Assembly (NCBI GenBank): GCA_964592775.1
Contig: CAZQFX010000004.1
Span: 1 to 40,166, forward strand
Reading direction: 5' to 3'
Length of the DNA stretch: 40,166 nt
From: an uncultured Actinomycetota bacterium
GTDB lineage: Bacteria > Actinomycetota > Geothermincolia > Geothermincolales > RBG-13-55-18
Shown here one piece after another: positions 5,882 to 40,166 of the stretch. A model generated the notes under the pieces. That model did not search any database and had not been told where the DNA came from. It saw nothing but the letters and a program-made list of their open reading frames with translations. Both the position numbers and the translations under genes were made by a program. Positions within the stretch are counted from its first letter, which is position 1; each line of letters starts with the position of its first letter.

Positions 5882-6044
5882 GTGCACCGTTTCATAATTA
5901 CGGTTGCATTCGATCGCCGCTGCATCCCCACCCGCTGTGTTCCGCTCCCTGCGACGTACTCGCAGATTACGCCTCAGCCGCGCGCCTTGCGGGTGGGGCG
6001 CAGCGTCGCTCTCGATACGTCACCGTAATTACGAAACGGTGCAC
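5882..6044. mobile_element. MITE-like 163-bp element with 23-bp terminal inverted repeats and TTA flanking duplication
   Basis: GTGCACCGTTTCATAATTACGGT (5882-5904) matches the reverse complement of ACCGTAATTACGAAACGGTGCAC (6022-6044) at 22/23 positions. Both ends are flanked by direct TTA (5879-5881 and 6045-6047). The interior is also largely self-complementary (CTGCATCCCCACCCGC / GCGGGTGGGGCGCAG). The core 5943-5977 recurs inverted at 25927-25961. Confidence 0.6.
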
Positions 6045-8247: not shown

Positions 8248-8364
8248 GGTTCTTCTCCGAGAAGTATACTTAACACCGTTGGGGTCAGTCATTCATGAAT
8301 CGAAGATCGATACTGCCCCTTCTGACTTACCTTCACATTCACCCACGCTTCTCGCATAAGAACC
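8248..8364. repeat. 117-bp unit bounded by inverted F1 arms
   Basis: GGTTCTTCTCCGAGAAG (8248-8264, +) and GGTTCTTATGCGAGAAGCGTGGGTG (8340-8364, read on -). The interior carries CGAAGATCGATAC (8301-8313). The left arm overlaps the -35 position of a minus-strand TATAAT (8235-8240) upstream of the 7717..8175 gene. Confidence 0.55.
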
Positions 8365-14627: not shown

Positions 14628-14739
14628 CCTGCCGCCCTTCCTGCGCTCCTCCGGCGGCTGCAACTCCCGCATCAACGCCTGCCCGGCCCGGATGCTCTTG
14701 ACCTGCCGCCCTTCCTGCGCTCCTCCGGCGGCTGCAACT
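14628..14739. repeat. perfect 38-bp direct repeat, copies 74 bp apart (14628-14665 and 14702-14739)
   Basis: CCTGCCGCCCTTCCTGCGCTCCTCCGGCGGCTGCAACT occurs twice. Copy 2 lies inside the CBS gene 3' end and copy 1 just past its stop. Confidence 0.9.
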
Positions 14740-24721: not shown

Positions 24722-25930
24722 ATGTCTCCAGGAAACGGAGGGACCGGCCGGCGGCGGGAGTGGCTTCATCATATCTTGTATATTCTCGCCGGCCTGGTCC
24801 TGGCGGCGGTCCTGTTCTCCCGTGGCGCCGGTGACGGCGCCGCTTTCCTCATCCTGCCGTTGCCCCTGCTGGGCATAGCCGTGCTCACCAACGTGGAGGC
24901 GGGCAAGAACCGCTTCGGCCGCTACAAGGAGTACGGCATCCCGGACATCGTCGGCTCCGATGGCCTGGTGGTGGAGACGGAGACCATGGAGGAGATCGAC
25001 GGCGCCATCGGGCGCATCCTGTCCCATGGGGAGCGCCTCATCTGCCTCAACGGCGGCGACGGGACCGTGCAGCGTACCGTGACCCATATGGTCAACAAGT
25101 ACGGGGAGGGAGCTGACCGCATCCCGTTGCTCTTCCCCTTGAGGGGCGGGACCATGAACCTGCTGGCCGACCACCTCGAGGTCAGGGGGACGCCGCCGGA
25201 TCTGCTGAAGGCCGCGATGAAAACCGCCTGCGGCACGCAGGACTTACCCTACGTGGAAGTGCCCACTCTGAGGGTGACGCGGGATATGGGCGGGGTAACG
25301 GCAAGGGAGTACGGCTTCTTCTACGGTAACGGGGCCCTCTACCGTTTCCACCGCGTCTATTACCGCGAGACCAACGGGGGGCCGGTGGCGGCGGCCGGCC
25401 TCTTCGCGAAATGCGCGCTCGGGGGAGCCATCAAGCGCACCCGTTACAAGGACGTCTTCGGGCTCACCCCGGCGAGGGTGCTCATCGACGATTTCGAGTT
25501 GCCCGCGGACCAGGTCACCGTGGTCCTGGCGGTCATCTTCAAGGTGGTGGTCATATCCTTCGACGCCTTCCGGGACGAAGGGGAAGGCGACTTCTACGTC
25601 CTGGCCACCAGCGTGCCCATCTTCAAGATGGCGCGCAAGCTGCCCAGGCTGCTGTGGGCGAGAGGCGCGGAGCCCCCCTATGCGAAAGAAGAGTTCTTCA
25701 ACCAGAGAGCCTCGCGGGTGATGATGGAATGCCGCGAGGGATACAGCCTGGACGGGGAGGTATTCGAGCTGGAGGAGCCCTACCGCCTGACCATCGAGAC
25801 GGGACCGAAGGTCAAGTTCCTTAACCTTAGGACCCAGGCCCATATATCCGGTAACGCATCGAGAGCGTCGAGAGCGTCGCTGCGCCACGCCGATTCATCC
25901 CGCGCCGTGCGGGACAAGGCGCGCGACTGA
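24722..25930 (+). CDS. membrane-anchored DAG-kinase catalytic-domain protein
   Basis: Internal ATG of ORF 24638..25930. Two N-terminal TM helices. LICLNGGDGTVQRTV (GGDGT) motif. The last ~30 codons lie in repeat-derived DNA. Confidence 0.75.
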   Translation: MSPGNGGTGRRREWLHHILYILAGLVLAAVLFSRGAGDGAAFLILPLPLLGIAVLTNVEAGKNRFGRYKEYGIPDIVGSDGLVVETETMEEIDGAIGRILSHGERLICLNGGDGTVQRTVTHMVNKYGEGADRIPLLFPLRGGTMNLLADHLEVRGTPPDLLKAAMKTACGTQDLPYVEVPTLRVTRDMGGVTAREYGFFYGNGALYRFHRVYYRETNGGPVAAAGLFAKCALGGAIKRTRYKDVFGLTPARVLIDDFELPADQVTVVLAVIFKVVVISFDAFRDEGEGDFYVLATSVPIFKMARKLPRLLWARGAEPPYAKEEFFNQRASRVMMECREGYSLDGEVFELEEPYRLTIETGPKVKFLNLRTQAHISGNASRASRASLRHADSSRAVRDKARD

Positions 25931-25961
25931 GGCGTACTCCGCGAGTACGTCGCAGGGAGCG
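25838..25961 (-). repeat. inverted, diverged copy of the interior of the 5882-6044 element
   Basis: CTGAGGCGTACTCCGCGAGTACGTCGCAGGGAGCG (25927-25961) matches the reverse complement of 5943-5977 at 32/35 positions. Homology continues through GGCGCAGCG.CGCTCTCGA and CGGT.ACG.ATCGAGAGCG. There is a local tandem CGAGAGCGT x2. Confidence 0.7.
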
Positions 25962-25995
25962 CAACCAGGTTTTCGCGCAGCGAAAACCTGGTTGC
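25961..25995. terminator. perfect 16-bp hairpin between convergent genes (no U-tract)
   Basis: GCAACCAGGTTTTCGC-GCA-GCGAAAACCTGGTTGC. Confidence 0.5.
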
Positions 25996-32025: not shown

Positions 32026-33333
<1,308 letters not shown>

Positions 33334-33398
33334 CAAGCAGGGACGGGGCGGAGCCTTGACCGGAATCGGCTTTCCATTCAACGCTCGTTCTGAAGGGA

Positions 33399-34541
33399 GT
33401 GGAAATATTGCATAACGGAATCGGTATAGTCGAAACGCAATACTTCACATTCGCCGGTCCTCCCGGTCGGTTTACCCTGGACAGCGGCGAGGAGCTGGGG
33501 CCGGTCACCGTAGCGTACGAGACATACGGGGCCCTGAACGGGGAGCGCTCCAATGCCATCCTCGTGGCCCACGCGTTTTCCGGCGATGCCCACGCCGCGG
33601 GATGGCACGAGGGCGCGAACAAGCCCGGCTGGTGGGATGGCATGATCGGACCGGGCAAGGCCTTCGACACCAATAGGTACTTCGTGATCTGCTCCAACGT
33701 GCTCGGGGGATGCAAGGGAACGACGGGCCCGTCATCGATCAACCCGGCGACGGGGAGACCGTACGGTACAGCTTTCCCGCTCATAACCATCCCGGACATG
33801 GTTGGGGTGCAGGCCAAGCTCCTTGACCACCTCGGCATCGCCAGGCTCCTTTCCGTCGCCGGCGGCTCCATGGGCGGTCAGCAGGTGCTGGAGTGGCTTG
33901 TGTCTCACCCCGAGCGGGTGAGAAGCGCGATAGTCATAGCGACCGCGGCCAGGCATTCCCCCCAACAGATCGCCTTCAACGAGGTTGGCCGCCAGGCTAT
34001 CATGGCGGACCCCAATTGGAAGGGCGGGCGCTATTATGGCGGAGACCTTCCGGCAAAGGGGCTGAGCGTGGCGCGGATGGTCGGCCACATCACCTACATG
34101 AGCGATAAATCGATGGCCGAGAAATTCGGCCGGCGCGCGGGAAGAAACGGCGAAGCACGGCCTTTCAGCAACGGTTTCGAGGTCGAGGATTACCTGCATT
34201 ACCGGGGCTTGAGTTTCGTGGGCCGCTTCGACGCCAATTCCTACCTGTATATAACCAGGGCCATAGACGATTACGACGCTTCGCGGGGTGGAAATCTTGC
34301 CAATGCCTTCAGGGGCTTGGAGGCCAAGACGCTGGTCGTTTCCTTCAAGTCCGATTGGCTTTATCCATCCTACCAGTCAGTCGAGATAGTGCGTGCGTGC
34401 AAAAGGGCGGGCGCCGACGTGACCTATTGCGAGATCAGTTCCACCTACGGCCATGACGCTTTCCTCCTGGAGGTCCATGAGCAGGCAAAACTGATTACGC
34501 ATTTCCTGCTGAAAACATATGGGGGGGAAACACGAAGATGA
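33399..34541 (+). CDS. metX: homoserine O-acetyltransferase
   Basis: 380 aa. GTG 33399 is the track start; TTG 33408 has better spacing from GAAGGGA. GGSMGG nucleophile elbow. The GHDAFL motif is near the C-terminus. Confidence 0.95.
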
Positions 34542-35167
34542 GGGCCGTGAAGGACGGGGTGGAACATGACACGATAGCGGGCTGGGTGAAGTACGGATCA
34601 TCCGTCCTGGAGCTAGGCTGCCGCGATGGAAGTCTGCTGGAGCGCCTTGTCGCCGAAAAGGGCGTGAAGGCGCAGGGCGTCGAGCCGGATGATGAATCCA
34701 TATTCCTTTGTGTCGAGAAGGGCCTTTACGCACTCCACGAGCAGGCTGACACCGCATTGCACGATTACGCTGATGATTCGTTCGACTACGCCATATTCGA
34801 TCGCAGCCTCCAGCGCGTGGCCGGGAAACCGGAAAAAGTCCTAGAGGAAGCCCTGAGGGTAAGCAGGCGTACAATCGTCGGGTTTTCCAATTTCGCTCAC
34901 TACCGCGCGCGCTATCAGATATCGATGAGGGGCCGGACCCCGGTGACGCAATCGTTGCCATACCACTGGTACGATACGCCCAACCTTCATTTCCTGAGCA
35001 TCGGCGATTTTTCCGACTACTGCGGATCGAAAGGCATTCGGATCGAGGAAGCCGCCTTTTTCGGAAGGCGCGGCGCTATCGGATTGTGGCCTAACCTGAG
35101 GGCGCTCTCCGGCTTCTTTCTGATCTCGAGGCGATCACCACGATGCCAACCGCCATCCAGGAGGTAG
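34538..35167 (+). CDS. metW: methionine biosynthesis protein MetW
   Basis: 209 aa. ATGA overlap with met[13 protein letters not shown] methyltransferase-like motif. [11 protein letters not shown] is typical of MetW. Confidence 0.9.
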
Positions 35168-35173
35168 GAGAAG

Positions 35174-35281
35174 ATGTCCGGCGAGCTGTACGGCATTGTT
35201 GAAGCGATCGGCGGAACCCCGTTGGTCAGATTGAACGAAGTGGTTCTTCTCCCAGTAGTGTGGGTAGAGAAATACAGGTGA
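35174..35281 (+). pseudogene. 5' fragment (about 23 codons) of a cysteine synthase / cystathionine beta-synthase-family gene
   Basis: A strong AGGAGG RBS, then MSGELYGIVEAIGGTPLVRLNEV. The IGxTPLVRLN motif is the conserved N-terminus of CysK/CBS PLP enzymes. Homology stops at 35241 where the F1 repeat starts, and a stop follows 12 codons later. No remainder of the gene lies in the window. Confidence 0.55.
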
Positions 35282-35328
35282 TTTAGCGTCAATACGGAAA
35301 AGAGCTGGTAGTTAAGGTATGGGCACAC
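35241..35328 (+). repeat. 88-nt long form of the F1 repeat, copy A
   Basis: 78/88 identical by hand alignment to 40079-40166. It begins TGGTTCTTCTCCCAGTAGTGTGGGTAGAGA and ends GTTAAGGTATGGGCACAC. Confidence 0.85.
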
Positions 35329-35356
35329 CATCGCATATCAAATGCCATCCAGATAG

Positions 35357-35407
35357 CCCACACTTTATGGCGAAGAGCCAGAGGGGTTCTTCTCCAAAAA
35401 GCGTGGG
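35357..35407 (+). repeat. F1 hairpin: 23-nt arms, 5-nt loop
   Basis: CCCACACTTTATGGCGAAGAGCC-AGAGG-GGTTCTTCTCCAAAAAGCGTGGG, with 19 Watson-Crick pairs and 1 G.U pair out of 23. Confidence 0.8.
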
Positions 35408-35613
35408 TGGCGAGAAAGGGATTGCATGATGACGGGATCGGGTCCGACCCCAAAGGCCACTCATGCTTCACGGAGACGAACCCAATATAATAGGTCGTGG
35501 AGCCTGCTGCACAAACCACGGCCGGATGTTGAAGGAGTCTGAACGCAATGCGACACTACTGGTTTATGCAACGGGCTCTGTGGTCCGAAAGCGTTGCCTA
35601 AGGCGGTAAGCGG

Positions 35614-36723
35614 GTGTTCTACGACGTGATGGCCATGGGAGCGGGGCCGGGCGGCTGCATGGCCGCCAGGACGCTCACGGGCGCCGGTTTCAGGGTGGTC
35701 CTGCTGGAAAAGGAGAGGATCCCCCGCGACAAACCCTGCGGCGGCTTCCTCTCGCCCCAGGCCGTTTCACACATCGAGGAAGCTTTCGGGCCCATCCCCG
35801 GCGACTGCCGCTCCTCCCCGCAGCGGGCACTCGGCGCCCGTCTGCTCTGTGAAGGCGGGGGCGATTACGAACTCCCTTTCTCCGCACCCGGCTCGTCTGT
35901 CGTGCGTTCACGCCTGGACGCCTTTCTTGCCGCGGGTTGCGGAGCCACGGTCATGGACGGCTGCGAGGTGGAGGGCCTCGAAGTGGGGCGCTTTCGCGTG
36001 AAAGCGCGATTGAAACCCCTCGAGGGAGGGGAAGAGACGGTGGAAGCGACCTATCTCCTGGCCGCGGACGGAGCGGACTCCATGGCGCTGCGCTCTCTCC
36101 GCCCCGAGTTCCACCGTACTTATGCGGCTCCGCGCCTGCAGCGGAGCATGTTGGTGCTCAGCGGCGGGAGGATGGAATGGGATCCGGAGTGGATGGGCCT
36201 CGTGCTCATGCGGAAAGGTTCGGGTATCGCGCGCTTTTTCGCAAAGGACGGCCTTATCGGCCTGGCGGTGAACCATGGCGGCGCCAGGGGGTGGCGGGAA
36301 GAGCTGGACGGGCTCACCGCCTTCCTGCGGCGGAGTGTGGGACTGCGGGTCGAAGGAGAGACCATGCGCCAGATAACGGCCTCCAACCGCATGGCGGCCG
36401 GAGGGCATTATAACCTGGGAGCGGGATGCGCCCTGCTGGCGGGGGAGGCGTCCGGGCTCCTGGACCCCTGGGGCTTCGGCATCCGCCTGTCATTGGAGAG
36501 CGGGCGCGTGGCCGGGGAGTCCATCGTGGAGAGCGCGGGGGAAAGCATCACGCCCCACATCCGCTACCGCTACCGCATGCGGGAAATACTGGAGCGTGAG
36601 CTCAGGCAGCGCCGCGACCTCAGCGGCGGAATGGGGGATCTGGAAACCGCGTCCCTGGCCGGTGACAGGAGCCGCGCCGCCCGGCGTGACAGGCGCGCCC
36701 TGCGCCGCCGCTTCTCGAAGTGA
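35614..36723 (+). CDS. FAD-dependent oxidoreductase (geranylgeranyl reductase-like family)
   Basis: 369 aa. GTG start. YDVMAMGAGPGGCMAA dinucleotide fold, LLEKE, and LLAGEASGLLDP near the C-terminus. The tail is Arg-rich. Confidence 0.8.
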   Translation: MFYDVMAMGAGPGGCMAARTLTGAGFRVVLLEKERIPRDKPCGGFLSPQAVSHIEEAFGPIPGDCRSSPQRALGARLLCEGGGDYELPFSAPGSSVVRSRLDAFLAAGCGATVMDGCEVEGLEVGRFRVKARLKPLEGGEETVEATYLLAADGADSMALRSLRPEFHRTYAAPRLQRSMLVLSGGRMEWDPEWMGLVLMRKGSGIARFFAKDGLIGLAVNHGGARGWREELDGLTAFLRRSVGLRVEGETMRQITASNRMAAGGHYNLGAGCALLAGEASGLLDPWGFGIRLSLESGRVAGESIVESAGESITPHIRYRYRMREILERELRQRRDLSGGMGDLETASLAGDRSRAARRDRRALRRRFSK

Positions 36724-36732
36724 AGGGGTGCC

Positions 36733-37479
36733 TCAGGGGCTATAGCGGAAGTGCTCGTACCATCGCATGGGCTGCTCCGGGCCCTGGGCGAGCAGGGTCC
36801 ACAGCGCCGAGGCGATGCTCTTTGCCCCCTGCAGCGCCAGCCTCCCCCGCAGGCCGGGAACGGCCAGCACGGGGGGGAATTCACCCGGCGTGGCCTGGGG
36901 AGACTCCTTGCGGGCTTCCTTTTTTGCCAGGGGCAGCTCGATGACGGCCAGGCAGCATGGATCCCCCTTGGAAAGCAGGCTGGTGATCTTGGGCACCGCG
37001 AGGTCGGGGTTGAGCACGGAGAAGGTGCCGGCCTCCAGGGCCATCATCAGGCGGGTGCAGACGTCGGGGCAGGCGGCAAGCTCCCCCGCCGCCGGGCAGT
37101 ACCGTTCCTCCTTCACCGCCCTTCCTCTGGTCTCCTCGGTCCAGACGCCCTTCACTCCGGCCAGGCCGTCCTCGTAGTCGAGCACGCGCCCCAGGCTGCG
37201 CGCGTCACGGGGGTCGATATGCAGGGCCTCGCGGAGGATGGGGGCGCGCTCCTCCCCGATGCGGTAGAAGACGTACTGCAGAGCGCGCACCCCCGGCTCC
37301 CCGTAACGCTCGTACAGTTCCGGCAGGAGCCGGGTCAGCCCGCGCATCACCAGGCGGATGGGGACCTCGCGATGCCAGGCGGGGTCCAGCAGGTCCTTAG
37401 GCCGGGGGTGAAACGACCTTACCGCCAGGCCGTAGCCTACGGCAGAGGCAAAAAGCGCGCGTTTCGCCTTCTTGAACAA
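36733..37479 (-). CDS. hypothetical Cys-containing protein (possibly ATC-hydrolase-like fold)
   Basis: 248 aa with coding-like composition. YCPAAGELAACPDVC ... GDPCC motifs. The family call is only a resemblance. Confidence 0.55.
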   Translation of the reverse strand: MFKKAKRALFASAVGYGLAVRSFHPRPKDLLDPAWHREVPIRLVMRGLTRLLPELYERYGEPGVRALQYVFYRIGEERAPILREALHIDPRDARSLGRVLDYEDGLAGVKGVWTEETRGRAVKEERYCPAAGELAACPDVCTRLMMALEAGTFSVLNPDLAVPKITSLLSKGDPCCLAVIELPLAKKEARKESPQATPGEFPPVLAVPGLRGRLALQGAKSIASALWTLLAQGPEQPMRWYEHFRYSP

Positions 37480-37555
37480 GCTCCATCACTCCTCTTTGCG
37501 TCGTTTCGTCCCGGGTGACGAGACACCATGGCCGCCCGGAACCCGGGTATCGGGT

Positions 37556-38662
37556 TCACGGCGCCAGGGGGCGGTTGACGTCGATCTCCACCACTTCCCC
37601 CGTTGCCGCCCTGGCGGCGAAGACGATGCCCTTGGAGTTGTACTCCATGATGGTCAGCTCCTCGCCCTGAAAGTTCATGGTGCTCTGCCTCTCCGGCGGC
37701 CCGAATTCCTTCACCGCGTCCGCCGAAGGCGAGCCGATGCCCACGCCCTTGGGCGTCTTTCCGGCGTAGGGGGAACGCACGCCTACCGAAACCACGATGT
37801 CGAAATCCCCCAGGGCGTCGTTCCTGTCCATGTCCTCCATGTAGACGTTAAGCTTCCAGGGGCCGTATCCGCCGGTATAGGTGGCGAAGACCAGCCCCTC
37901 GGTGGTGAAGCCGGCGCTGTCGGGGGCCCCGTACTTCTCCTTCACCCTCCTGAACTCGTCATCGATGTTTATGCCCGCCACCGTCTGGCCGGGAACGATG
38001 GGGGCCGACCCGTTCACGCCGAAAAGCCCGCCCTGCGCGTCGCCTCCGTCGCCCTGTTCCTCAACGGGGCGCAATCCTCCGTAGGCGGCCACCACCACCG
38101 TTATCACCCCGTCTTTCCGCGCGATGAGGAACTCCACTCCCTTCCGGCCGTACGAATACAGCTGCAGCTTCTCGCCCTCCGGCCCCTGGGTCTCGGTGAT
38201 GCTCTCGCAGGGCCCGAACTCCCCCTCCACGTCGCCCGGCGTGCTCCCCATCCCCACGCCGCCGGAGGTCAGGCCGTAGTAGGGCGCAGACACCTCCACC
38301 GCCCCCACCTCGTCGGCGGCGTCGAGGTAGCCGTTGCCGCCGTCGTACAGGGTGACCACCATGCGCCAGGAGGCGGGATCGTTTATGTCCCCCCCCTCGC
38401 GCGTCCTGGCGTAGTAGGCGTAGTGGTAGCCGCCGTCCTCGAGGTTCAGCTCGGGGTCGCCGTGCGCTTCCCGCACCGCCGAGTAAGGGTCGCCGATATT
38501 GACCTCGGCCACGGAGTATCCGGGCACGATGGGATCGCGGTCCCAAGCGGAGAGATCCACCCCGCCGCCGCCGCACCCGGCCGGCGCGGCGGCGGCGGTT
38601 GACATGGCCAGCGCCGCTGACGCCAGGCGGGCGGTGAGCGTTTTCGCCCGGTTCTTTCCCAT
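37556..38662 (-). CDS. lipoprotein with internally duplicated domain
   Basis: 368 aa. Signal peptide ending AAAPAGC. Two homologous halves: PIVPGYSVAEVNIGD..GVGMGSTPGDVEGEFGPCE..GVEFLIARKDGVITVV and PIVPGQTVAGINIDD..GVGIGSPSADAVKEFGPPE..GIVFAARAATGEVVEI. Confidence 0.75.
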   Translation of the reverse strand: MGKNRAKTLTARLASAALAMSTAAAAPAGCGGGGVDLSAWDRDPIVPGYSVAEVNIGDPYSAVREAHGDPELNLEDGGYHYAYYARTREGGDINDPASWRMVVTLYDGGNGYLDAADEVGAVEVSAPYYGLTSGGVGMGSTPGDVEGEFGPCESITETQGPEGEKLQLYSYGRKGVEFLIARKDGVITVVVAAYGGLRPVEEQGDGGDAQGGLFGVNGSAPIVPGQTVAGINIDDEFRRVKEKYGAPDSAGFTTEGLVFATYTGGYGPWKLNVYMEDMDRNDALGDFDIVVSVGVRSPYAGKTPKGVGIGSPSADAVKEFGPPERQSTMNFQGEELTIMEYNSKGIVFAARAATGEVVEIDVNRPLAP

Positions 38663-38668
38663 CTCCGC

Positions 38669-39244
38669 CTATTCCCCCTCCCACTCTTGCTTCGCGCTTC
38701 CGTCTCCGAGGCCGCGCCGGGTGTAGACTACGGGGATGTCCATGGCACGCGCCACGCTCTCGACGATGAGGAAGGCCTTGGCGCGGTTTTCCGCGGGAGC
38801 CCCGGTCGTGCCGGAGCGGAAGAGCTTCATGGGACGGCCGTTCTTTCGTTTCAGGCAGACGCGGACGAAATAGGAGAGGTCCCTCCTGGAGGTTTGCCCT
38901 CCTTCCGCGGTGGGGACGCGGGGCGACTCGGCGACCTCCACTTCCTCCAGGTCATCCCGGCCCAGGCGGCGGCGGCTGGAAATGAAATAACGGTAGCGTT
39001 CCAGCGTCAGTTCGCGTGCGGCGGGGTCGACGGAGACGTAGGTGGGGGAGGAGAAGATGGCGAACATGCTGTAGAAGAGCAGGACCACGCAACTGATACC
39101 CAGGGGGAGGCGCATGATCCCGATGGTGGCCAGCACGGCGAAGGTGACCGAAGTGTAGAAGATAAAGGCGTGGATGCCCTCCCACGGGCCTCCCCGGACC
39201 TCGAACTCCATGCGTTCGCCTGCCCTCGCGGCCGCCTCCGCCAT
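38669..39244 (-). CDS. hypothetical membrane protein (2 TM helices + soluble C-terminal domain)
   Basis: 191 aa. AGGAGG RBS. Hydrophobic segments AFIFYTSVTFAVLATIGIM and ISCVVLLFYSMFAIF. The stop lies 6 nt before the lipoprotein ATG. Confidence 0.7.
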   Translation of the reverse strand: MAEAAARAGERMEFEVRGGPWEGIHAFIFYTSVTFAVLATIGIMRLPLGISCVVLLFYSMFAIFSSPTYVSVDPAARELTLERYRYFISSRRRLGRDDLEEVEVAESPRVPTAEGGQTSRRDLSYFVRVCLKRKNGRPMKLFRSGTTGAPAENRAKAFLIVESVARAMDIPVVYTRRGLGDGSAKQEWEGE

Positions 39245-39379
39245 TTTTCCTCCTGACCTCTGGTCCCTTGTCCCAGGCGGCTCTTACCGCTGCCATTATA
39301 ACCTATGGGAGGACGGCTTCCCCGGTCAAATGCGAGCGTATTCATGGACCTGGGTACCGGGAACCCGCGTAGCGGAGGA

Positions 39380-39634: not shown

Positions 39635-40047
39635 GGTTCACCTCCCTTCCCGTCACGATAAACGGCGCTCCCGGGTCTCACCCCGTTCCCCGCAGGGATG
39701 AGCCGATCGCGGTTATATAAAAAGCTACCCCGTTACCGAGGGCATGAAACCGTTTACCGAGAGAGCGCGGGTACGCCCGACCACCGCCGTTCTATGCCAT
39801 TTTTCGGGAGGGGCGGCCGTAAATCCTGCGACGCCGTCCATGCCCCTAGCGCCGGGACCGCTTCGCGCGGTCCAGAGGAAAAGCTGCCGGCCGTTGGCCG
39901 CCGCCTCGCGGTCGGGTCATGCCGGCGGGCGGCGCTCCGCGCCAGGTCTGGAATCTTGGATTCCGAAAGAATGGCGCATTGATGCATGATCATAAGGCAC
40001 AATCGTAAGATCCAAGACCTGTCCCCGTTCATCTTCCTGCCCGATCG

Positions 40048-40166
40048 CCCACACTTCTCGAGACCATGTTATATAATATGGTTCTTCTCCCAGAAGCGTG
40101 GGTAGAGAGACGCAAGTGATTTAGCGCGAGTACGGAAAAGAGCTGGCAGTTAAGGTATGGGCACAC
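40048..40166 (+). repeat. F1 inverted arms flanking ATGTTATATAATAT, then the 88-nt long form, copy B (runs off the right edge)
   Basis: CCCACACTTCTCGAGACC (40048-40065) is an imperfect reverse complement of GGTTCTTCTCCCAGAAGCGTGGG (40080-40102). Positions 40079-40166 match 35241-35328 at 78/88. Confidence 0.8.

Follow-up and report, generated by a model that had tools for sequence, protein, structure and literature searches.

ISL3-family insertion sequences (ISs), whose type element is ISL3 of Lactobacillus delbrueckii, are recognised in the ISfinder descriptions by an 8-bp target duplication and by GG-initiated ends of 15–39 bp. In Neisseria, the abundant Correia elements are intergenic MITEs of 100–155 bp with inverted repeats of about 26 bp, whose transcripts fold into hairpins; they generate a TA duplication, have no ISL3 partner and exert documented effects on transcripts via RNase III and promoters. 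In Microcystis aeruginosa PCC 7806, a multi-copy, non-coding MITE of 187 nt with a predicted stem-loop is bounded by 8-nt direct repeats and by imperfect inverted ends starting GGCTCTTCG that match ISL3-family transposase genes, and it has moved between laboratory strains (PMC11448079).

Here we describe a 138-nt element, known from sequence alone, in the MAG of a subsurface actinomycetote, a host of another phylum than the Cyanobacteria in which the Microcystis MITE resides. The first 9 nt of its right end are identical to GGCTCTTCG, whereas its interior is unrelated to that of the 187-nt element. With ISL3-family ISs it shares GG-starting ends of about 25 bp and an 8-bp AT-rich target duplication, and the 3' end of an ISL3 transposase gene lies against its end sequence and reads part of it; unlike those ISs it lacks a transposase gene, is a tenth of the length, and has an interior with no similarity, outside the ends, to an intact IS carrying the same termini (L057, below). 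It resembles Correia elements in intergenic abundance, size class and inverted-repeat length, and differs from them in its 8-bp duplication and ISL3 partner. The element has the features that define a MITE, and both its ends (GG-initiated, within the 15–39-bp range) and its 8-bp duplication are of the ISL3-family kind; we put at about 90% the probability that the 88-base repeat first noticed in this DNA is part of a 138-bp non-coding MITE with ISL3-family ends, and thus ordinary mobile DNA.

The repeat pair and the full extent of the element

The window, meaning the whole stretch of DNA analysed (40,166 nt), is contig C4 of a 2.9-Mb assembly of 272 contigs (G000). It contains two direct repeats, 35241–35328 and 40079–40166, which are identical at 78/88 positions and lie 4838 nt apart. 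Sequence comparison thus confirmed the preliminary description, which had reported two 88-nt copies in the same orientation, 4.8 kb apart, and had quoted their bases correctly both in copy A (GTGT at 35258–35261, ATAC at 35272–35275) and in copy B (GCGT at 40096–40099, ACGC at 40110–40113). The match of the 88-mer within the genome (BLAST E about 1e-26) is far beyond chance.

That description had also suspected a unit longer than 88 nt and had proposed collecting homologues genome-wide, and both suggestions proved well founded. A search of the whole assembly with the 88-mer returned 30 matches, and a search with a longer query extended the common unit to 138 nt (window 35242–35379), the length also given by the alignment of genomic copies, with the 88-base repeat forming its left two-thirds. 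The genome contains not two but at least 25 copies of this longer form, partial copies at contig ends included; the 22 full copies are 83–97% identical to copy A, with a mean column identity of 89%. Substitutions scattered among the copies, together with small indels, follow no reading-frame pattern, as expected of a non-coding element, and the length is below the roughly 500 bp that bounds MITEs. The features of the two copies in the window are as follows.

35242..35379, plus strand: copy A, a complete 138-nt putative MITE, delimited by alignment of 25 genomic copies
about 35242–35267 (left) and about 35354–35379 (right): inverted repeats of copy A, without a recognisable target duplication
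40080..40166, plus strand: copy B, nucleotides 1–87 of a 138-nt putative MITE, completed by the remainder on contig C116, minus strand
40072..40079, no strand assigned: left 8-bp target-site duplication TATAATAT of copy B, with the identical 8-mer after the right end on C116

Copy B had been described as cut by the window edge. It does end at the contig edge, but only the assembly cuts it and the element itself is complete: the last 55 nt of the window (40112–40166) overlap exactly with the start of contig C116 read on the minus strand, and the joined copy ends in GGCGAAAAGCC, followed by TATAATAT. Another contig, C22, has the identical 55 nt with a different flank; we prefer the join to C116 because the matching TATAATAT duplication is found there only. 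The element boundaries were further confirmed by metagenome contigs (three DNA runs of one subsurface-metagenome study, the public runs listed for this stretch including none of RNA), which, piled up on the window, diverge exactly at the element edges (35242, 35379/35380, 35385 and 40079/40080) and reach a depth about six-fold higher over the element. The single joint reported, linking 35380 to 39323, was rejected as an element-skipping form, since it carries the flank of a further copy on contig C7 and is a repeat artefact.

Terminal repeats, target sites and a candidate ISL3 transposase partner

Inverted termini of about 25 nt are present in all copies, the left end being GGTTCTTCTCCCAGAAGTGTGGGT and the right end closing in GGCGAAGAGCC (reverse complement GGCTCTTCGCCATAAAGTGTGGGC). 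The two termini are complementary at 23/26 positions, and 87.5% of the corresponding cells pair across the 22 full copies. The 8-mers flanking 24 copies agree on average at 5.4/8 positions, compared with 2.0/8 in shifted controls, and 13 of the 24 reach at least 6/8; perfect 8-bp duplications surround five copies (ATAATTCA, ATAAATAC, TGAAAACA, ACAACATG and ACAGCGGA). These 8-bp targets have an A+T content of 67%, against a genome-wide G+C content of 63% and one of 45–51% in the element copies themselves, and all 25 copies lie between predicted genes, in both orientations. Using a sequence-only model (R1), we also found diverged full-length copies in five of the seven genera of the family, across which the body of about 135 nt is constant in length.

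A candidate source of the mobilising enzyme was found beside the same ends. The Pfam domain DDE_Tnp_ISL3 (PF01610) has a single match in the genome, a C-terminal transposase remnant on contig C108 (3.8e-12). Another repeat interrupts this remnant, and about 20 nt separate its end from an inverted repeat that agrees with the MITE end at all but 1 of 24 positions. The ISL3 transposase gene of a same-genus genome (G008:C50) carries a frameshift, and its reading frame continues into an end matching at 25/26 positions. An intact IS of 1334 bp (L057:250–1583) encodes a 422-residue transposase (PF01610 at 6e-72, plus HTH_Tnp_ISL3), 87% identical to the G008 transposase over the C-terminal 195 residues, and its ends show the same asymmetry as those of the MITE, with GGTTCTTCTCC on the left and GAAGAGCC closing on the right. 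At all three loci the shared ends lie 0–20 nt from the 3' end of the transposase gene.

The contig that carries the intact IS (L057; NZ_JBMFOX010000113.1, 1768 nt) is almost wholly made up of this ISL3 element and is binned in a Candidatus Hadarchaeum (archaeal) MAG; it is probably mis-binned, the other explanation being cross-domain transfer. The repeat interrupting the C108 remnant (L031:1370–1450), a small element inside another, belongs to a second, unrelated family with 51-nt arms that are 92% complementary, of which the window holds arms at 5939–5989 and 25915–25965, about 20 kb apart.

From these observations we infer past activity of the element and its mobilisation in trans by an ISL3 transposase. 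A full-length IS with the same ends would have supplied the ISL3-family DDE transposase, which would bind the terminal inverted repeats of roughly 25 bp and excise or copy the element; insertion into AT-rich intergenic DNA through staggered target cuts would then leave the 8-bp duplication. Copies A and B would belong to a single subfamily with at least 25 insertions, and the pairing potential seen in the repeat would be a by-product of the inverted repeats and the element sequence, not a selected RNA fold. The preliminary description had raised the conserved end of a mobile element as one possibility; the mobile element stood, although what repeats is a whole miniature element with both its ends and not a single end.

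In this genome's assembly the only ISL3 transposase sequence is the C-terminal remnant, with no intact copy bearing the MITE ends; the MITE family may be dormant here. The metagenome contigs contained no empty site, no insertion polymorphism and no form skipping the element, and scanning metagenome contigs for the precise sequence of an unoccupied site, at copy B and at the C7 copy, returned 0 matches. In the same-genus genomes, only the downstream FAD-oxidoreductase gene aligns at the copy A site (70–74%), and the flanks of a copy on contig C13 found no alignment.

Pairing potential and competing readings

The fold of the copy A plus strand is stable (-43.2 kcal/mol, z = -3.1), which follows from its inverted ends; the minus strand folds no better than shuffled sequences (z = -1.4). 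A good fold on the plus strand is what would be seen if the MITE had also been put to host use, with a co-transcribed hairpin altering mRNA stability, processing or termination in ways reported for Correia elements of Neisseria. Such a use would be compatible with a MITE origin, and the frequent placement of copies 10–100 nt from gene ends fits it, as does a weak covariation signal in interior hairpins across genera. We nevertheless consider it unlikely: a minus-strand transcript would fold like shuffles, orientation to genes is mixed (where flanking genes are codirectional, 11 copies point the same way as these genes and 6 the opposite way), a scan of copy A and its surroundings found neither promoter-like nor terminator-like sites, and the terminal stem shows no compensatory change, either in the 22 copies or in the cross-genus alignment.

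The interior signal deserves care. It was obtained for the hairpins of a minimum-free-energy structure taken from one of the aligned sequences, in a cross-genus alignment that includes 17 diverged copies found with R1; 63% of cells are paired and the score was reached by 1/500 shuffles, a signal that, according to the calibration of the tool, related sequences can produce without constraint. This signal and the constant body length in five of seven genera, neither of which is obviously predicted by simple neutral decay of the element, are the grounds for a somewhat less probable reading, in which the body of about 135 nt, and not the ends alone, is under selection and might act as a folded single strand of DNA or RNA. 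If this were true, the folded body would be needed for mobilisation or would have been adopted by the host, for example as an mRNA-processing hairpin; we consider this unlikely too.

A free-standing structured RNA, regulatory or guide-like, with a small hairpin and a 9-bp helix kept by selection, appears very improbable. The preliminary description had read the repeat as a transcribed structured RNA carrying a compensatory change, and copies A and B taken alone do show a 4-bp hairpin surviving two substitutions, and most copies retain the 9-nt complementarity. The larger sample does not sustain that reading. At the supposedly compensatory pair, the 25 copies have T/A (15), T/G (5), C/G (2), C/A (2) and T/T (1; Fisher p = 0.31), and the neighbouring pair has 3 C.A and 1 T.T; non-compensated C.A and T.T states are therefore present in the stems of further copies, an outcome that the preliminary description itself had named as counting against its proposal. 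The 9-bp helix, proposed between TTCTTCTCC and GGAAAAGAG, can form at 8 of its 9 positions, while the central position is C.A. When the proposed helices were compared with column shuffles in the 22 full copies, 231/500 shuffles reached the observed number of paired cells and 152/500 the covariation score, and the cross-genus alignment likewise gave no covariation in these two helices. We also considered the 9-bp helix as an internal third copy of the element end; the similarity (8/11 and 10/13) is reached by 2–20% of shuffles and is not significant, and this candidate was dropped.

Rfam gave no support to a guide-like or regulatory RNA either: at the gathering threshold the window returned no match to the repeat, and a permissive scan of 35150–35620 returned one chance-level match (E = 0.34). 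The copies lie in both orientations relative to genes, and the 8-bp duplications and transposase-shared ends explain the conservation at the DNA level. The sole Rfam match in the window was a group II intron catalytic domain (RF00029) at 2455–2530, which scored 51.5 bits, above the gathering score.

Other element classes that carry structured RNAs, in the form of an IS110 bridge-RNA end, an IS200/IS605 omega-RNA region or a REP/RAYT palindrome, can be set aside almost entirely, since to our knowledge these families have neither long terminal inverted repeats nor 8-bp target duplications, both of which are present here, and since the gene adjoining the same end encodes a DDE transposase of the ISL3 type.

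Related ends in the genome and the surroundings of copy A

The 138-nt MITE is not the only element with such ends. At up to 5 mismatches, 182 end-like sites were found in the genome, compared with 3 in the reversed genome; joined in pairs, they give elements of several size classes, 22 of about 138 nt, about 16 of 95–107 nt and others of up to 340 nt. Perfect 8-bp duplications flank 8/33 elements of the other subfamilies. The roughly 180 ends of this kind come from several subfamilies of MITEs, and the window contains three further examples of this superfamily.

35385..35482, plus strand: a 98-nt MITE, second subfamily, whose inverted repeats are of the same type, found by paired inverted-repeat scan
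40047..40065, minus strand: remnant of a solo inverted repeat, degenerate, shortly upstream from copy B, from sequence reading (repeat family D11)
8248..8364, plus strand: a 117-nt element of a third subfamily of the same inverted-repeat superfamily (inverted pair I24, paired inverted-repeat scan)

The 98-nt MITE starts 5 nt after copy A, where metagenome contigs have a loose end (35385), and its 95–107-nt relatives elsewhere in the genome have perfect 8-bp duplications; the solo remnant shows internal deletions relative to the consensus. Five pairs of ends lying 0.8–1.9 kb apart were examined as full-length elements and rejected as chance pairings, since housekeeping genes lie between the ends, a glutamyl-tRNA-synthetase-like ORF among them.

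At copy A the flanking 8-mers match at 4/8 positions only, and a truncated gene start lies upstream of it.

35174..35241, plus strand: 22-codon start of a cysteine-synthase/CBS-like gene, identified by translation

This gene start includes the residues IGGTPLVRLN and loses its gene character exactly at the first base of the MITE. Itself apart, it is most similar, and only weakly so (E 0.1–0.2), to the N-termini of the two PALP/CysK-type genes on contigs C69 and C41; the remainder of the gene was not found in the genome, where all six PALP genes are full length. Just upstream of copy A lies a metW gene. A search with this protein as query found no metW in nine other genomes of the genus, and MetW in one other genus of the family only, at 54% identity. 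The downstream FAD-oxidoreductase gene is conserved in 9/9 same-genus genomes, and none of the seven loci inspected has a metW next to it. Because a duplication is lacking, the gene is truncated at the element edge and the metW neighbourhood is patchy, copy A probably lies where a deletion or rearrangement joined two sequences, and not at the site of a simple insertion. The homoserine-acetyltransferase-like/MetW block as a whole (32038–35167) is patchy among relatives, and may have been acquired, with the MITE as its right border.

These ISL3-type MITEs break the assembly: 13/544 contig ends, that of the window included, have such a repeat end within 150 nt. They also mimic RNA hairpins and mark points of rearrangement, as with the truncated cysteine-synthase-like gene at copy A, and recognising them prevents false regulatory-RNA calls and allows contigs to be joined, such as C4 and C116. 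The genome carries about 180 of these ends in its 2.9 Mb, the record of a large ISL3-type MITE burst in a little-studied subsurface actinobacterial lineage. For research on mobile DNA in slow-growing deep-biosphere microbes the interest is modest, and the main value lies in annotation.

Two other repeats were noted in the window. A repeat scan detected a perfect 38-nt direct repeat (family D16) at 14628–14665 and 14702–14739, with a spacing of 74 nt. A motif resembling CAAGACCTGACCC adjoins MITE copies both in this genome (window 39995–40030; G000:C127, about 540–554) and in a same-genus genome (L044, about 2600–2625), and may represent one terminus of a further family of small repeats.
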